Of a DNA stretch of 64,000 nucleotides, positions 18,314 through 57,565 are shown piece after piece (position 1 is the stretch's first letter; each line of letters starts with the position of its first letter). This DNA comes from Candidatus Poribacteria bacterium (GTDB lineage: Bacteria; Poribacteria; WGA-4E; WGA-3G), in the NCBI GenBank assembly GCA_963663765.2, contig CAXXUA010000013.1:608001-672000 (forward strand), read 5' to 3'. The notes under the pieces are model-generated. The model saw only the letters and a program-made list of their open reading frames with translations. It searched no databases and was not told the DNA's origin. The translations under genes and the position numbers were made by a program.

Positions 18314-19181
18314 CAGGGTTATTCAGTTTTAGTAGTTTTTGCAGATATTTATAACATTCGTGAATTAGATGCGTAGGTCGGGTAGAGCGTATGCGAAACC
18401 CGTAGGTGTCAACTTAAGAAAATATTGTTTGCATTTTCTCTTGTGGGAGGGGTTTTCAACCCCGATTTGAGCGGAAATGCACTAAAAAATCGGGGTTGAA
18501 AACCCCTCCCACAAGAGGTAAAATCCTTAAGTTGACACCTATGGGTAGAGCGTATACGAAACCCGACATGTATTGATTGTTTGCATTTTCTCTTGTGGGA
18601 GGGGTTTTCAACCCCGATTTGAGCGGAAATGCACTAAAAAATCGGGGTTGAAAACCCCTCCCACAAGAGGTAAAATCCTTAAGTTGACACCTATGGGTAG
18701 AGCGTATGCGAAACCCGACATGTATTGATTGTTTGCATTTTCTCTTGTGGGAGGGGTTTTCAACCCCGATTTGAGCGGAAATGCACTAAAAAATCGGGGT
18801 TGAAAACCCCTCCCACAAGAGGTAAAATCCTTAAGTTGACACCTATGGGTAGAGCGTATGCGAAACCCATAGGTGTCAACTTAAGAAAAAAGTGTTGGCA
18901 TATTCTCTTGTGGGAGGGGTTTGTAACCCCGATTTGAGTGGAAATGAACAAAAAATCGGGGTTGCAAACCCCTCCCACAAGAGGTCAGAATCCTTAAGTT
19001 GACACCTATGGGTAGAGCGATAGCGAAACCCTACATGTATTGATTGTAGTTGTCATGTCGGGTTTCGCTATCGCTCTACCCGGGGAATGCCTAAATGGCA
19101 TTCATACCGTTGATTTGGACCTACGATATAAACTTTAAGTAACACCCATCAACTGATAATTCTTAAAACTAAATAACCCTG
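18314..19181. mobile_element. 868-bp composite MITE with CAGGGTTATTYAGTTTTA terminal inverted repeats
   Basis: TIRs start at 18314 and end at 19181; 9-bp target duplication CCTTTATAA (18305-18313 / 19182-19190); the homologous intergenic region 29095-29284 lacks the insert. Confidence 0.9.
18401..19010. repeat. Array of 143-bp CATAGG-TIR MITEs (18401-18543, 18868-19010) plus a 152-bp tandem triplication, separated by 20-bp REP hairpin copies
   Basis: TIR CATAGGTGTCAACTTAAG; flanking direct repeat GGTAGAGCGTATGCGAAACC; CTCTTGTGGGAGGGG recurs at 18438, 18590 and 18742. Confidence 0.88.
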
Positions 19182-40485: not shown

Positions 40486-40679
40486 TAAAGAGGGTGGTGG
40501 CATCGTATTTCTATAAACATATCGTCCCTACCAAATCAACGCCAAATGCGCCAAATCAACGGTATGAATGCCATATGAAGATTAATTTATTAATTCGGTA
40601 ATAAATATTTCTCTCACGGTAGGCGGGGAATGCCTAAAGAAGCATGCGCGTATGGCATGCTCCATGATTCATACCGTTG

Positions 40680-41191
40680 GGGTGTGTAAAGTTTTTGCAC
40701 AAACTGCACATTCTCCATTGTAGAGCGGGGTCTCTGTGCACCGCCGCATAGGTGTCAACTTAAGGATTCTGACCTCTTGTGGGAGGGGTTTGCAACCCCG
40801 ATTTTATGTTCATTTCCACCCAAATCGGGGTTACAAACCCCTCCCACAAGAGAATATGCCAACACTTTTTTCTTAAGTTGACACCTATGGGGTCTCTGTG
40901 CACCGCCGCAACTGATTAAATGAGAGATTGCGGGCACAGAGACCCATAGGTGTCAATATAAGGAAATATTGTTAATATCAACCATACTCTTCAGTCCCGT
41001 AGGGACGATATGTTTATAGAAAACAAGTACCCTTCCCAGTTCTTTAGTCCCGTAGGGACGATATGTTTATTCTTCTATGTCGTTCCTACGGAACTCAAGA
41101 GAGGGTGATTACACCTATCTATAAACATTGCGTCCCTACGTGACTAAAGAGAACAAAAGTTTGTACCTCTGTGCAAAAACTTTACACACCC
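40680..41191. mobile_element. 512-bp MITE with IS256-like ends
   Basis: Perfect 22-bp TIR GGGTGTGTAAAGTTTTTGCACA; 9-bp duplication ATACCGTTG (40671-79 / 41192-200). Family assignment inferred from GG-start TIR and 9-bp duplication. Confidence 0.88.
40747..40889. mobile_element. 143-bp CATAGG-TIR MITE
   Basis: Near reverse complement of 18868-19010; 19-bp duplication GGGTCTCTGTGCACCGCCG. Confidence 0.9.
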
Positions 41192-41333
41192 ATACCGTTG
41201 ATTTGGTGCTTTGTAAGCGCGCCCCCGATGGTAGGCGGGGAATGCCTAAATAAGCATGCGCGTATGGCATGCTCCATGATTCATACCGTTGATTTGGTGT
41301 TTTGTAAGCGTGCTGGCATATCAAGTTCCAATA

Positions 41334-41421
41334 GCGCGCTTACAAAGCACGCCTACCATCGGTAGGCGCGCTTACAAAGCACGCTTACCATCGGTAGGCG
41401 CGCTTACAAAGCACGCCTACC
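41334..41421. repeat. About three tandem REP palindromes, 32-bp period
   Basis: Unit GGTAGGCGCGCTTACAAAGCACGCCTACCATC. Confidence 0.8.
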
Positions 41422-41464
41422 GTGGGAAAATATATGGATACCCAATAAATAAATTAATCTTCAT

Positions 41465-41684
41465 GAAGAATGTGCTACAACTGACCGCACAATCTGGAAG
41501 AATGTGCTACAACTGACCGCACAATCTGGAAGAATGTGCTACAACTGACCGCACAATCTGGAAGAATGTGCTACAACTGACCACACAATCTGGAAGAATG
41601 TGCTACAACTGACCGCACAATCTGGAAGAATGTGCTACAACTGACCACACAATCTGGAAGAATGTCTATTATTGGCGAAGGTAT
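41465..41684. repeat. 32-bp tandem repeat x6 ending in the TGGCGAAGGTAT TIR (truncated CAATACC-MITE)
   Basis: Unit GAAGAATGTGCTACAACTGACCGCACAATCTG, no spacers. Confidence 0.92.
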
Positions 41685-41761
41685 CTAAAGGTAGGAACGA
41701 CTTCCTATTAATAATCGAAAGAAACAATTCAACATAAATAAATTAGAAAAAATGAATTTTA

Positions 41762-41788
41762 TGCAACCTTTTCCATTTTGCATGTATC
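41762..41788 (+). promoter_or_regulatory. Possible ECF-type promoter upstream of the ECF sigma gene
   Basis: TGCAAC-16 bp-GTATC about 40 nt upstream of the ATG; resembles the AAC/GT pattern of ECF promoters only. Confidence 0.3.
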
Positions 41789-41825
41789 ATGATGGTCATA
41801 AGGGAATTCCATTTAGGAGATACTT

Positions 41826-44645
41826 ATGAAAAACAACGATGTTACTTTAATTCAACAGATACTCAATGGTGACCAAAACGCTTTTACTGATTTGGTAAAA
41901 AAGTATCAGAAGCAGGTACACGCATTTGCATGGCGGAAGTTAGGTGACTTCCATCTCGCTGAAGAGATCACACAGGATGCCTTTCTTAAGGTATATAACC
42001 AACTCTGGACACTTAGAGACCATGATCGTTTTGGTGGATGGTTATTTGCTATTGTAAAGAATTGTTGCTTATTGTCATTTCGAAAAATGCAGCTACCCAT
42101 TGAATCTCTTGATGCAATACCTGAAGCAGAGGCAGAAAGAGTTTTCTATACCCAATATCTTGAGAAACAACGCGAAGATATTGCTGATGAAAATCGACAT
42201 GAGGTCGTGAAACGTCTTCTGATGAAACTGCCTGAGAATGAACATACAGTTATAACCCTTCACTATCTTGGTGATATGCGTTGCGAAGAAATTAGCGAGT
42301 TCTTGAGTGTTCCATTGAATACCATTAAAAGTCGTCTCCATCGGGCAAGGAAACGATTAAAGGAGGAGGAATCCATGGTACGCGAAACATTAGGTGGGTT
42401 TGAATTACCAGAAAATCTTACGAAGAATATTATGGAATGGATACAGATGAATGAACCGGGTGTAGCGGCTTCAGTAGGCACATTGGCTAAAACATCGGAT
42501 GGGACAGTCTTTGCAGTGTTGGGTTATAAGAACATCTACAAATTACTTGCGGATGAAAATGAGTGGCAACCCGTTAACTCGGATTTTTTCCCTGAAAAGA
42601 CCAAGGGTAGTATCCCTATTGCTGAGCACAATGGAACGGTTTATATTATCCCATCTCATGAAATGTTTGCCTCAACTGATGAGGGTGAAACTTGGAATTC
42701 TGTCAGCACCTGTCCTGAAGGGCATGTGAGGGAATTGTTGATCACAGAAGATGCATTTTTTATCGCTCTTAATCATGGTATTTTCCGTTCCGATGACGCT
42801 GGAAAGTCATGGGTAGACATGAACGAGGGCTTTGACAAACGGGTGACAGAGAATTCAGGTATTAGAACATTACGAGTCAGCCAAGACACCTTATTTGCTG
42901 GAACATCTCTCGGTGTATACCGTCATAACTCTGAAACTTGGGAACACCTTCAGTTACCGGTTGACAATATTGTGGTTGTAAATTCTCTGGAGGTGACCGA
43001 AAACCAAATAAATGCCGCAGTATCGGTAAATATAATGGAGGGTGACGGACCTCCTGAAGTAAATTACTATAATTTGTGTGATATTAGCAAGGATTCGTGG
43101 TGGGTATTTCGATCATCAGATGGTGGAAATTCGTGGACCGATATAACGCCTTCGGAGGCACGGGATATAATAATGAAATCCTTACCTCCGATAGTTCTTC
43201 TTGCATCTGGGAAATCACTCTTATTGGTAGGTGGCGAGGACGGTGTTGTTGCTCGCTCAGTTGATTGTGGGAACACCTGGAAAACTATAGAACAGTCTGG
43301 TATTGCACCATTGCAGTTTAGTGTAAACTGTGCTGTAGCATTAGACGAAAACACCTCTTATACCGGTGGAATGTCTGGTATTCATCGTACAACGGATGGT
43401 GGTGAAACTTGGCTCCGATTCAATACAAGGTTTGCGTGCCGTGTGGAAAACCTAATTAGCTTGAATGTGGATCCAGATTCAGATACACCAAATGCACTCT
43501 ACGCGACAGTGGCTGGGAGTGTGGTCAAATCAACAAACGCAGGTAGTTCATGGTCTACTGTGGGGATTGACCTGCCAAGGGTTACTACTGAAATACCAAA
43601 ATTCAATGCAAAATTCAAAGATACAGAATATACACCGAGAATTGTACAGATTACCGAAGACAACGGTGTTCTGTATGCAAAAGGAATTCGGCGCAATAAT
43701 GAAACGGCTTACTATCGTTTCGTTCCTGAAAAAAACTACTTAGTTGCTGTTGAGGGAGAATACTGTTTAAGTCCAGTTGAGGGAACGGCACCACCTTCGC
43801 GAGATTCTGCAAGACTGATGTGGACTGTCTTTGGCGAAGCAACATTTCCCTTTGATAATGACCGTCTAATGGGACAAGGGGTACTGCTTTCCTTCTCCTC
43901 TACCTTCTCTACAGATCCTGACGATTCTGAGTCTTTATCCACTCAGATAATACGGGATGATCCAAAATATGGTGCAGAACGCTTTTTAAAACTAATAGGT
44001 CAAGTTCAAGGTGATCATCAACTGGCTTACGAATTGATGTTGGAAGGTTTATACGGCAACTTCGCGGTGAGTGGAGAAACGTACTACATGGAGTACAACT
44101 ACAAACTCTTCCGATGGAAACCCGGTGATACAAGATGGTCCGATACAGGTGTAGAGGAAACTTGCGAACTCACACGTGAAAATATGGCGCGAGGCTTTAA
44201 ACTTGCTACATCGGGTGAAACAGTATACGTCGGTAAGCGTGATGGGCAACTTTTTCAATCCCTTGATGGTGGTGATAGTTGGAACGACAGGACATCATAC
44301 CTGCCGCAGCCGGTTGAACACTACAATCAGATTGTCCTTACCGATTCAACGGTTCATGTCGCAACAGACAAAGGGGTTTTCAATTCCATAGATGGTGCTG
44401 TTTGGCAAGCAATCACCGATAAAGCAGGGGAAACCGTAATCATTAAGTCGTTAGCAACAGCAGAGGATGCTGTTTATGGAGCGAATAATGACGGCATCTA
44501 TCACATAGAAAAGGAAACAGTAGTTTGGGAACAAATTGTACCTGAAATTCCAGATACGATTACTTCTCTGGTTGTTGATGGAGATACCTTTTTCGTTGGC
44601 ACTGAACATCGCGGTGTACTCCGTTTTGAACGTTCTGAGTCATAA
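41826..44645 (+). CDS. ECF sigma-70 factor fused to a large BNR/Asp-box (YCF48-like) beta-propeller region
   Basis: Region 2 (AEEITQDAFLKVY...FGGWLFAI), region 4 (EEISEFLSVPLNTIKSRLHRARKRLK), repeated Asp-boxes SxDxGxxW; AGGAG RBS. Confidence 0.9.
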   Translation: MKNNDVTLIQQILNGDQNAFTDLVKKYQKQVHAFAWRKLGDFHLAEEITQDAFLKVYNQLWTLRDHDRFGGWLFAIVKNCCLLSFRKMQLPIESLDAIPEAEAERVFYTQYLEKQREDIADENRHEVVKRLLMKLPENEHTVITLHYLGDMRCEEISEFLSVPLNTIKSRLHRARKRLKEEESMVRETLGGFELPENLTKNIMEWIQMNEPGVAASVGTLAKTSDGTVFAVLGYKNIYKLLADENEWQPVNSDFFPEKTKGSIPIAEHNGTVYIIPSHEMFASTDEGETWNSVSTCPEGHVRELLITEDAFFIALNHGIFRSDDAGKSWVDMNEGFDKRVTENSGIRTLRVSQDTLFAGTSLGVYRHNSETWEHLQLPVDNIVVVNSLEVTENQINAAVSVNIMEGDGPPEVNYYNLCDISKDSWWVFRSSDGGNSWTDITPSEARDIIMKSLPPIVLLASGKSLLLVGGEDGVVARSVDCGNTWKTIEQSGIAPLQFSVNCAVALDENTSYTGGMSGIHRTTDGGETWLRFNTRFACRVENLISLNVDPDSDTPNALYATVAGSVVKSTNAGSSWSTVGIDLPRVTTEIPKFNAKFKDTEYTPRIVQITEDNGVLYAKGIRRNNETAYYRFVPEKNYLVAVEGEYCLSPVEGTAPPSRDSARLMWTVFGEATFPFDNDRLMGQGVLLSFSSTFSTDPDDSESLSTQIIRDDPKYGAERFLKLIGQVQGDHQLAYELMLEGLYGNFAVSGETYYMEYNYKLFRWKPGDTRWSDTGVEETCELTRENMARGFKLATSGETVYVGKRDGQLFQSLDGGDSWNDRTSYLPQPVEHYNQIVLTDSTVHVATDKGVFNSIDGAVWQAITDKAGETVIIKSLATAEDAVYGANNDGIYHIEKETVVWEQIVPEIPDTITSLVVDGDTFFVGTEHRGVLRFERSES

Positions 44646-44678
44646 GTTTCTAATACCAAATTAACGCGATTCATTCAA

Positions 44679-54643: not shown

Positions 54644-54815
54644 TAGCATACCTCTAATACCAAATTAACGGATTTTATCTTTTTCCAACGGTAGGTGCGG
54701 TTTCCTAACCTCACACTTAGCAAGACGGATTACGTTAATTGGGTATAACATAATCTCTGGTGAGTCTATGTAGGTAGGTGAATATCCAGCATCCCTACAA
54801 ATCTTATCATTTGTT
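54643..54815 (-). pseudogene. C-terminal remnant of a probable PIN-domain protein
   Basis: After removing the 88-bp MITE it reads DKICRDAGYSPTYIDSPEIMLEVC*, resembling the ICRxxGYxxPxIxTPEEL tail of a PIN family. Confidence 0.45.
54658..54745. mobile_element. 88-bp TACC...GGTA MITE, TAA duplication
   Basis: Inverted second copy at 56344-56431. Confidence 0.88.
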
Positions 54816-56120: not shown

Positions 56121-56640
56121 TTATGTTTTACTCACTATGACTTCCCCATCAACAGTTTTAGCTGTGGTCTGGAACCATTGACCTTTGTTTAAGGTGCTGT
56201 GAAAAACTCCATCGGTGGTTACGTACTTTCCAAAAGGACATCCAATTGCTTTAATGGTTTCACCTTTCTCAACCAGATCGCCATCGTAGATTGGAAAAGG
56301 GGTTCCTTGACCTTCAACTTTAAGTATGACAAGATCGTTGTTATACCCAATTAGCGTGATTCGTCTTGCTAAGTGTGCGGTTAGGAAACCGAACCTACCG
56401 TTGGAAAAAGATAAATTCCGTTTATTTGGTATTAGAATCAAACGCCGCAATACCTTCCACAACGTACTCTGTATTCGTGGGTGAATGGTTGGCTAAAACT
56501 GATGTCGCACCAGCGACACAGTGGATATTTGTTGCAATTAAGTTCTCAGTAACGAAAAACCCAGTACCGTTACCGACACCTTCCGATTTAATTGATACGA
56601 CCATAGGTTTACCTATGGTTTGTTTATTGTCTTGCTGCAT
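56121..56640 (-). pseudogene. Trypsin-like serine protease pseudogene
   Basis: GTGFFV...ATNIHCV (His); removing the MITE restores FDSNNDLVILKV (Asp); the GxSG serine motif is missing. Confidence 0.8.
56344..56431. mobile_element. 88-bp TACC...GGTA MITE, TTA/TAA duplication
   Basis: Excision with one 3-bp repeat restores the protease frame. Confidence 0.9.
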
Positions 56641-56675: not shown

Positions 56676-57565
56676 CAATACCTTCGCCAATACTACAGGG
56701 TTATTTAGTTTTAAGAGTTTTCTGTTATTGAGATTTACTGAAAATTAATACCCAGGTTCGATTTCCTAACCGAACTTTCCGCATCAGTTTTAGATTATTG
56801 AAACATGAACATCGCTCTTTAGTCCCGACAAATGCCTTATGGGGAATGCCTTAATGGCATTCATACCGTTGATTTGGCGCATTTGGCGTTGATTTGGTAG
56901 GGACGATATGTTTATTATTCTATGTCGTTCCTACGGAACTCAAGAGGTGTGGAAAACATTTTCTATAAACATATCGTCCCTACGGGACTAAAGAACTCGA
57001 CAAGATGGCACCCCATAAAATTAACGACATAGCAAAATAATATCAAAAATATTGAAAACTAAATAACCCTTGCCAATAATAGACATTCTGCCAGATTGTG
57101 TGGGTAACTGTAGCACATTCTGCCAGATTGTGCGGGCAGTTGTAGCACATTCTGCCAGATTGTGCGGGCAGTTGTAGCACATTCTGCCAGATTGTGCGGG
57201 CAGTTGTAGCACATTCTGCCAGATTGTGCGGGCAGTTGTAGCACATTCTGCCAGATTGTGCGGGCAGTTGTAGCACATTCTGCCAGATTGTGCGGGCAGT
57301 TGTAGCACATTCTGCCAGATTGTGTGGGTAACTGTAGCACATTCTGCCAGATTGTGCGGGCAGTTGTAGCACATTCTTCCAGATTGTGCATATAAATTAT
57401 TCTGTCAGATTCTATTGTCAAATTAGACGCTATGATAATTAAAAATACTTCAACGAAAACCACAAGTTATTTTTATTTTTGTAATCCTAACAATATCAGA
57501 GAGCAATGGTAGATCAACACTATATACTCATTCAACTGAAGCACTCAAAAATGGCGAAGGTAATG
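56676..57565. mobile_element. CAATACC-TIR MITE (inverted copy) with a 32-bp tandem array (about 9.6 units, 57083-57389)
   Basis: TIRs; 6-bp duplication TTCAAA; 57390-57565 is homologous to 51830-52021. Confidence 0.85.
56696..57071. mobile_element. 376-bp CAGGG-TIR MITE nested in the CAATACC MITE
   Basis: TIRs; 10-bp duplication GCCAATA(C/A)TA with one mismatch. Confidence 0.82.

Follow-up and report, generated by a model that had tools for sequence, protein, structure and literature searches.

The 64,000-nt stretch of DNA analysed here (the window) belongs to the genome of a Candidatus Poribacteria bacterium (G000; 6.35 Mb in 15 contigs, ~41% G+C, 97.8% complete). It contains several copies of a unit of 34-36 nt, which consists of a hairpin and the fixed 11-nt tail CGTTGATTTGG and interrupts repetitive extragenic palindromes (REPs) as well as other copies of itself. 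These units probably represent a superfamily of insertion modules that are ultra-small, carry no gene and are restricted to one genus of Candidatus Poribacteria, and they are best read as spreading both by their own insertion and passively together with their hosts. They are among the smallest apparently mobile DNA elements. [quoted passage not shown] This view was upheld, and all coordinates and sequences given with it proved correct when the window was read again.

Tails with an adjoining perfect stem were parsed in two rounds of excision, yielding 386 units. The shared plan comprises one base, a 7-bp stem with a 7-nt loop, the second arm, one further base and CGTTGATTTGG, in total 34 nt, and the outer flanking bases frequently form an eighth pair. 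The loops are mostly CATACGC, CAAACGC or CACACGC (CAnACGC), and the stems found are CAAATGC, CAGAAGC, CGAATGC, TGAATGC, AGCATGC and AGCGTGC with their complements. The A type differs from this plan by its length of 36 nt, a loop of 4-5 nt and the bases ATAC, which join the hairpin to the tail.

Covariation was scored for 27 distinct full units from several species together with a 14-nt 5′ piece of the B-type unit of the window. Changes on both sides were found at seven of the eight pairs, with loop and tail constant between families. The score was 0.395 compared to 0.134 for shuffled sets (0/500 reached 0.395) and at most 0.065 for slid partners; the rows of this set had been preselected for at least six pairs, and the unbiased figure is the 41 of 47 listed matches reported below. 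Pairing of the hairpin is under selection: the sequence of the stem is free, but it must pair. The shared plan and the covariation bear out the earlier statement that each unit is a hairpin plus a fixed tail. The strand that folds was also sought by way of wobble asymmetry, but mismatched stems were too few for an answer.

The commonest left flanks end in C-G (mostly CCCG, GGCG or ACG) in every family and species examined, with the exception of TTGG, which is the terminus of a preceding unit. Right flanks are unconstrained. The units lie in one orientation, and the site of insertion is often the loop or the foot of another hairpin.

Four paralogous copies of a composite host of ~330 bp were aligned for a comparison of filled and empty sites. 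Units are present in the window copy and at C5:1808019 (contig and position in G000), and the gap in the unit-less paralogues at C2:253539 and C3:14317 is exactly 36 nt. The alignment revealed no inverted ends and no target duplication, the junctions sharing one ambiguous G only. It is thereby in line with the preliminary description, which had claimed the lack of terminal inverted repeats (TIRs) and of any duplication beyond this G. The reading of the site and the paralogous gaps also confirmed that a 36-nt unit splits a REP at 19083-19118. The copies at C5:1808019 and in the window are 96% identical over 335 bp, yet their loops differ (AATAA vs TAAAT). Different loops within flanks that are so much alike speak for two separate entries into the same site.

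Paralogous empty sites, whose comparison with filled ones had been proposed, amount to hundreds in the whole genome. The B host (agtcccg^tagggac, the caret marking the insertion point) was found empty 598 times and filled 132 times. The corresponding counts were 358 and 13 for the C host (aaccccg^atttt), 52 and 3 for REP2 (ctacccg^acctac; empty form CTACCCGACCTAC), 426 and 215 for REP1 (gtaggcg^) and 688 and 45 for a REP1 variant (gcaggcg^). Among the B units 67 are plain, while 65 carry an A-type head straight after the loop G. For the A type, at least ten unrelated flank contexts were found. A rare form, CATACCCTTGATTT, was found in four copies and may be an excision footprint.

In the window the tail is present seven times exactly and 12 times with at most one mismatch; 100 shuffled windows had 1.6 on average and never more than 6. 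The genome-wide search that had been called for gave 428 exact tails, compared to 3.0 expected from base composition. Each of the 38 genus genomes searched was enriched in the tail, single-contig assemblies among them, with 13-519 copies (reversed control 0-8). Genomes of the sister genus (57 genomes) hold 1-24 tails and more distant genomes at most 17. The 3′ part of the A type, present in 257 copies in G000, was found in each of 24 same-genus relatives drawn (1-171 copies), and 16 genomes representing seven further genera of that order had no copy of it. Furthermore, one genome per species was scanned with a pattern that combined the end of the usual loop with any stem and the tail, and 80 of at least 106 stretches were evaluated. 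Among these 80 listed loci 45 come from Candidatus or uncultured Poribacteria records and hold 47 matches. At least six of the seven stem pairs were formed in 41 of these 47 listed matches vs 1 of 36 listed matches elsewhere, and this sole match belongs to a record titled 'uncultured bacterium'. The sequencing runs that contain the window locus are sponge metagenomes. The unit family is restricted to a single genus of Candidatus Poribacteria. Among the papers listed in searches of the published literature, supplements aside, none was relevant to the tail, its complement or two pieces of the unit, and none of those listed on Poribacteria and repeats, supplements likewise aside, describes these units.

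Differences between related genomes were followed in G013 and G017 (purA 96.6% identical) by comparing 30 unit loci of G013 with 1.6 Mb of G017. Most intergenic stretches with units were non-homologous, and two loci aligned through, with flanks ~93-95% identical. At the first locus an A unit lies at the same place in both genomes, in its short form in G017 and with 60 additional nt in G013. This extra sequence comprises the long form together with an A unit that is inverted and lies exactly at CATACG^C in the inner loop. At the second locus G013 has two heads and two tail modules and G017 one head and two tail modules, the difference being exactly CG and one head with its own nested content. 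At a further site near this locus the 36-nt and 60-nt versions are swapped between the two genomes. These differences indicate that units and nests were gained, lost or exchanged since the species split. In G012 and G049, which with 98.5% identity in purA are an even closer pair, the unit regions differ by whole repeat blocks in two alignments, which are not clean enough to count. The species nearest to G000 are only ~87% identical to it in purA. Downstream of purA in G000 (G000:C5:1739800-1740420, locus L197) a ~700-bp REP block with units was noticed; at this site the two nearest species (L198, L199) have apparent tRNA genes and another gene instead. Repeat blocks turn over as wholes.

Arrays of the A type consist of m heads followed by n tail modules, with 216 arrays of the form (1,1), 73 of (1,2), 53 of (2,2), 15 of (1,3), 8 of (2,3) and 4 of (2,1); higher orders occur. 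Heads that end in CATACCCG are split outer units and not a tail-less element, because in 120 of 122 cases another unit follows next. Tail arrays involve 200 of 507 A tails vs 0 of 157 tails of types B to E. In the tandem arrays of G022 B-type units alternate with units having a CAGCATGC stem, their tails being 34-35 nt apart. Joints of A nests read CCCG in 119 cases vs CCG in one, and the spacers between tail modules are C (258), T (13) or G (0).

The copies in the window and the features next to them are compiled in Table 1. The unit at 19083-19118 folds as DNA with -7 kcal/mol (z -2.9). It lies between ctctacccg on the left and acctac on the right, starting one base past the 3′ foot of the host hairpin (ctaccc-g^). 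The nest at 56828-56897 and the inverted, truncated nest at 40531-40574 were both confirmed. The latter loses its 5′ side to another element that ends in ...attaatcttcat, and the same truncation is found elsewhere in the genome. An element with ends like ATGAAGATTAATTTATTAAT (40575-40620 and other copies in the genome) was seen to enter A-unit loops after ...gcct(a)a, and the entry of such an element into the A-unit loop accounts for the truncated nest.

Table 1 Units, hosts and related features in the window (caret, insertion point; positions are those of the window)
Feature	Position	Strand	Details	Basis
A-type unit, 36 nt	19083..19118	+	GG, 7-bp stem GAATGCC/GGCATTC, loop TAAAT, linker ATAC, tail CGTTGATTTGG	sequence read
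Long hairpin hosting the 19083 unit	19010..19082	+	arms 19010-19031 and 19060-19081, then G at 19082	
60-nt version in REP1	41238..41297	+	ggtaggcg^tgttttgtaagcg; right flank begins tg	
Second 60-nt unit, whole span	40626..41206	+	split within the tail by a 512-bp element	
5′ part of the second 60-nt unit	40626..40679	+	interruption inside the tail	
3′ remainder of the second 60-nt unit	41192..41206	+	ATAC and tail	
512-bp composite element	40680..41191	.	terminal inverted repeats (GGGTGTGTAAAGTTTTTGCACA...); outside the unit family	
Nest with B-type 34-nt unit	56828..56897	+	B unit 56828-56841 and 56878-56897, in tagtcccg^tagggacg	
A-type 36-nt unit in the loop of the B unit	56842..56877	+	after cttatg	
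B/A nest, inverted and truncated	40531..40574	-	3′ 20 nt of B and 3′ 24 nt of A	
Empty B-host site	40992..41007	+	cagtcccg^tagggacg; second one at 41045-41060	
Three empty REP1 copies	41340..41422	.	GGTAGGCGCGCTTACAAAGCACGCCTACC; on the other strand target gtaggcg^tgctttgt	

A 60-nt version had been described at 41238-41297 and 40626-41206 as the 36-nt unit plus an extra hairpin. Both sites were right. The description was too simple in that the fold lacks the A stem, the outer stem of the unit being lost. The version at 41238-41297 contains the inner hairpin AGCATGC-GCGTATG-GCATGCT, followed by CCATGATTCATAC and the tail. The loop of this hairpin is the reverse complement of the usual CATACGC, and the 3′ part CATGATTCATAC has 84 copies in the genome. 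Copies with a 16-bp stem (GGGAATCATGGCGAATGC... pairing with ...GCATTCGCCATGATTC) suggest that the 60-mer of the window is a relative or chimera of a long-stem family. Hairpins of the same stem family with the loop either way round (CATACGC or GCGTATG) were seen at L154:186-219, in a Poribacteria record, and at window positions 41253-41273, a pattern suggesting that the loop may be inverted via the palindromic stem. The element within the second 60-nt unit is flanked by a 9-bp duplication, ATACCGTTG (40671-40679 and 41192-41200); it is packed with REP-like repeats, and its right junction recurs at four places in the genome.

A near-tail lacking a hairpin (CGTT[GA]ATTTGGTATTA) occurs at 44656-44666, 54660-54670 (minus strand) and 56419-56429 and has 33 copies in the genome. 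At 54660 and 56419 it lies ~20 nt past a GTAG-type REP hairpin that is followed by CTAC-CGTTGG, and at 44656 the spacer is shorter (CTAC-TTGAATG). This order of parts matches that of the A type, and the tail may have originated there.

For the mode of spreading we propose the following scheme. The form that is recognised and moves would be single-stranded, which would let the hairpin fold. A trans-acting nuclease-transferase would read the hairpin and the tail, make one cut behind the flanking C-G and another behind the terminal G-G, and paste the excised piece after another C-G, in the 'peel and paste' style of HUH enzymes, although the mover is possibly not a Y1 HUH protein. Entry without duplication after C-G or after the TTGG of a resident unit gives rise to nests in loops and tails and to tandem arrays. 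Many copies are passengers, as a unit inside a REP or MITE multiplies with its host, and arrays are then reshaped by slippage and by recombination between copies.

Several observations weigh against units that move by themselves in this way; they concern the enzyme, the junctions, the hosts and the window locus. The anatomy fits an enzyme that reads hairpins in single-stranded DNA, and no known enzyme is tied to the units. In G000 six matches to Y1_Tnp were obtained (four IS200/IS605 tnpA, one REP-associated tyrosine transposase (RAYT) and one fragment at a contig end). The 43 TnpB-type matches, belonging to several families, stand against only four IS200/IS605 tnpA, and five Resolvase matches lie in IS607-like elements (a 202-aa serine recombinase and a 550-aa TnpB). 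The IS110 DEDD domain (PF01548) and the RVT_1 reverse transcriptase (PF00078) had no match in G000, with six and three control genomes matched, respectively; for Y2 or a Rep-helicase there was no match in G000 and likewise none in the control genomes, so that this negative carries no information. The absence of an IS110-type gene from the genome speaks against the IS110-type substrate that the preliminary description had offered as one option.

Its other option, a minimal substrate for an HUH enzyme of the IS200/IS605/RAYT type, agrees with the anatomy and fails to agree with the ends and the distributions. Ends were inspected in three resident IS200/IS605-type families and in the IS607-like family. 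The IS200/IS605 ends have the same layout as the units, a hairpin and a ~10-nt 3′ tail, and their hairpins (CCCCATGC-TTTA-GCTTGGGG and similar) are unrelated to those of the units; the IS607-like ends bear no likeness to them. No tail-like sequence was found up to 1.8 kb upstream or 0.7 kb downstream of tnpB at the 39 of 43 matches examined. The RAYT gene (G000:C4:621598-622074, locus L021) has arrays of a different REP (GTAGGAGGGAACTCCGATTCCCGA...) on both sides. A query with the RAYT protein matched 24 of 39 genus genomes and 41 of 54 sister-genus genomes, and had no match in G001, G055, G021, G024, G014 and G045 despite their 69-231 tails. The Y1 family is present in 36 of 40 genus genomes and was not found in G001, G024, G010 and G042. 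Of these, G001 (97% complete) has 102 tails and G024 (one contig) 104, and in each ~90-110 A-type 3′ parts deviate from the consensus by at most one mismatch; G009, with 21 Y1 matches, has only 13 tails.

A search for autonomous elements with the same two ends around a tnpA, IS110 or reverse transcriptase gene had been suggested. No gene flanked by unit ends was found. Tails lacking a hairpin were also considered as ends of autonomous copies and turned out to be 60-nt or long-stem versions, units cut by other small elements or chance hits. The 29 open reading frames (ORFs) between units, judged by eye from their first residues, are ordinary genes and a few DDE-type transposases with no pattern, and the unit-dense regions contain no candidate mover gene. 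The orientation of the units has no relation to GC skew, which is weak (190 forward and 138 reverse in negative-skew bins, 128 and 124 in positive-skew bins). HUH enzymes remain the best mechanistic analogy, but every membership test that needs a matching enzyme failed.

Irregular junctions were found in nests and in one REP. When an A unit lies within an A unit, the outer CATACC-G-TTGATTT has become CATACC-CG-[inner unit to TTGATTT]-C-TTGATTT. In a REP of G017 the empty copies read GCGAGG-T-TTCCTAACC in 99 cases and have C in one, whereas at least 18 filled copies read GCGAGG-CG...C-TTCCTAACC, with one target base replaced. Either a unit of the form G...C may enter after C in rare C-variant sites, or one base may be replaced on entry. 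Several phases and core models were tried by hand in search of one cut-and-paste rule for all junctions, and canonical sites and nests were never both fitted; a common fit requires the assumption either that some targets are rare C-variants or that a base is replaced.

It is conceivable, as a tentative alternative, that the units are the substrate of an undescribed activity which is neither a Y1 HUH enzyme nor an IS110-type enzyme nor a reverse transcriptase. Such an activity would read a hairpin of free sequence and an 11-nt tail, place a single strand of 34-36 nt after C-G and sometimes replace one target base. If this tentative explanation were true, no smaller self-contained substrate of transposition would be known, and the units would give access to a new enzyme.

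The hosts raise a different explanation, namely that the units are not mobile themselves and that a few ancient insertions or fusions were followed by amplification of the hosts, gene conversion, unequal recombination and slippage. We consider this unlikely, even though several findings are in its favour. The B, C and D types have essentially one host context each in G000, and because of this single context their counts may come from one insertion each plus amplification of the host. Many A copies are carried in a ~150-bp MITE with CAGGACTTACGC ends. In some REP contexts the flanks are 1-3 bases off the commonest empty form or are halves of different REPs, for example with REP1 to the left and a different REP to the right, and these chimeric flanks point to recombination between copies. 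The numbers of heads and tails in A arrays vary semi-independently, the orthologous (2,2) and (1,2) arrays differ by CG and one head, as expected of slippage of a head repeat, and the 36-nt and 60-nt versions are swapped at one orthologous site. The explanation does not account, however, for the same boundaries in at least ten unrelated hosts with clean gaps of one unit, for a left-flank rule that is constant across families and species, for the inverted unit exactly at CATACG^C in one species only or for the alternation of different families in tandem arrays. Recombination alone predicts neither a fixed orientation nor a fixed end point in non-homologous hosts.

Of the window copy an orthologous empty site was not found, and the intergenic region, which is flanked by ORFs resembling non-ribosomal peptide synthetases, is unconserved in the 39 other genus genomes. 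A metagenome scan likewise yielded no close relative of the window locus. Three sponge-metagenome runs match long pieces of the window with full identity, in short contigs that break at repeats. One joint in a metagenome contig skips 56827-56896; with only 45 nt on one side it is indistinguishable from another copy of the host repeat.

Spread through RNA, in which a transcript of hairpin and tail would be turned back into DNA at C-G sites, appears quite improbable. A co-varying hairpin with a fixed single-stranded tail suits an RNA as well as a DNA strand, but RVT_1 had no match in the 97.8%-complete genome despite matching controls, and no family in Rfam matches the units.

Site-specific recombination of a circular unit by an IS110-type (bridge RNA), serine (IS607-type) or tyrosine recombinase is very improbable. 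Enzymes of this kind insert DNA without inverted ends and with little or no duplication, and five IS607-like elements are present. Crossover by serine and tyrosine recombinases requires a core of at least 2 bp. The junctions of the units, however, share only one ambiguous G, such a core misfits the empty sites and C-G is the only thing common to the targets, so that this explanation is close to refuted by the junctions. The genome furthermore lacks an IS110 DEDD domain, and the IS607-like ends are unlike the units. An assembly artefact or adapter, which had been named as a possible refutation and for which no favourable point was found, has next to no probability in view of the enrichment of the tail in all 38 genus genomes, including single-contig ones, the occurrence of the pattern in many independent Poribacteria records and the high depth at which sponge-metagenome contigs cover the repeat-rich bins of the window.

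Mobile modules with their own insertion, partly carried along by their hosts, thus remain the reading we prefer, and their closest known analogue is the small dispersed repeat (SDR) elements of cyanobacteria, of which the Poribacteria units are an analogue and not a member. SDR1-8 of Nostocaceae were reportedly described by Elhai and colleagues in 2008. They are said to be 21-27 nt long, to form hairpins with compensatory changes and to lie inside their own copies and other repeats, and they have reportedly been proposed to move through RNA. Both groups are dispersed gene-less modules of tens of bases, far below MITE size, and both are self-nesting, restricted to a lineage and, on the SDR side reportedly, endowed with a hairpin with compensatory changes. 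They differ in that the Poribacteria units have 34-36 nt (up to 60), occur in another phylum, share an 11-nt tail among all families and do not involve HIP1, and in that G000 has no reverse transcriptase match; the comparison is one of anatomy and behaviour. A passage in one paper gives SDRs a length of ~20 bp and calls them possibly mobile (PMC2884548), and part of another, on HIP1-rich cyanobacteria, states that no SDR-like repeat was found among them outside Nostocaceae (PMC5861425). According to a passage in PMC4390886, SDR5 splits GCGATCGC precisely behind its third base, after G-C-G; the Poribacteria units likewise enter after C-G. A passage of the REPIN paper counts SDRs among unexplained short palindromic repeats (PMC3116915), and the searched passages of a review on small bacterial repeats do not mention them (PMC3184786).

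The units resemble REPs and the REPIN-RAYT system as small extragenic hairpins with a fixed short flanking motif and hundreds of copies. Their hosts are REPs with a GTAG tag, and on the other strand the A type has the order CAACG-GTAT-hairpin compared to CAACG-GTAG-hairpin in the local REP1. They differ in being inserted into REPs instead of forming REP doublets and in the lack of a GTAG-like tag in the B, C and D types; moreover, the RAYT gene is flanked by other REPs and its distribution is unlike that of the units.

Elements of the IS200/IS605 family insert 3′ of a short specific sequence in one orientation, have no inverted ends and cause no duplication, and their 3′ end consists of a hairpin followed by a tail of ~10-15 nt. 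The units are like these elements and like palindrome-associated transposable elements (PATEs) in their entry 3′ of a motif, their single orientation, the absence of inverted ends and duplication and the order of hairpin and tail. In contrast to PATEs, which have two end hairpins and more than 100 nt, they have one hairpin and 34-36 nt; they are also unlike the ends of resident elements, and in some unit-rich genomes no Y1 was found. The 3′ termini of IS91 and Helitron elements carry a hairpin 10-12 nt before a fixed 3′ end and lack inverted ends and duplication. The units share the hairpin near a fixed 3′ end and differ in having no distinct 5′ end sequence. From classical MITEs they are set apart by the lack of TIRs and target-site duplication.

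Mobile DNA of 34-36 bases is at the lower size limit for carrying its own recognition signals. Only the cyanobacterial SDRs are comparable, and Poribacteria represent a second, unrelated lineage with like behaviour. The system lends itself to testing, as it offers a free stem with a fixed loop and tail, many families, 13-519 copies per genome, 38 species and complete genomes. The units account for much of the repeat clutter that breaks Poribacteria assemblies, and they show the growth of REPs and MITEs by accretion.

Some other features of the window were recorded. Three successive giant ORFs (3218, 3249 and 3387 aa) occupy 8640-39448 on the minus strand and, by their size and by internal paralogous matches in relatives, look like a non-ribosomal peptide/polyketide synthetase cluster; the unit at 19083 sits in the gap between two of the giant ORFs. 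At ~41660-41880 approximately six head-to-tail copies of a 32-nt repeat (ggaagaatgtgctacaactgaccgcacaatct) were found upstream of a 939-aa ORF at 41826.

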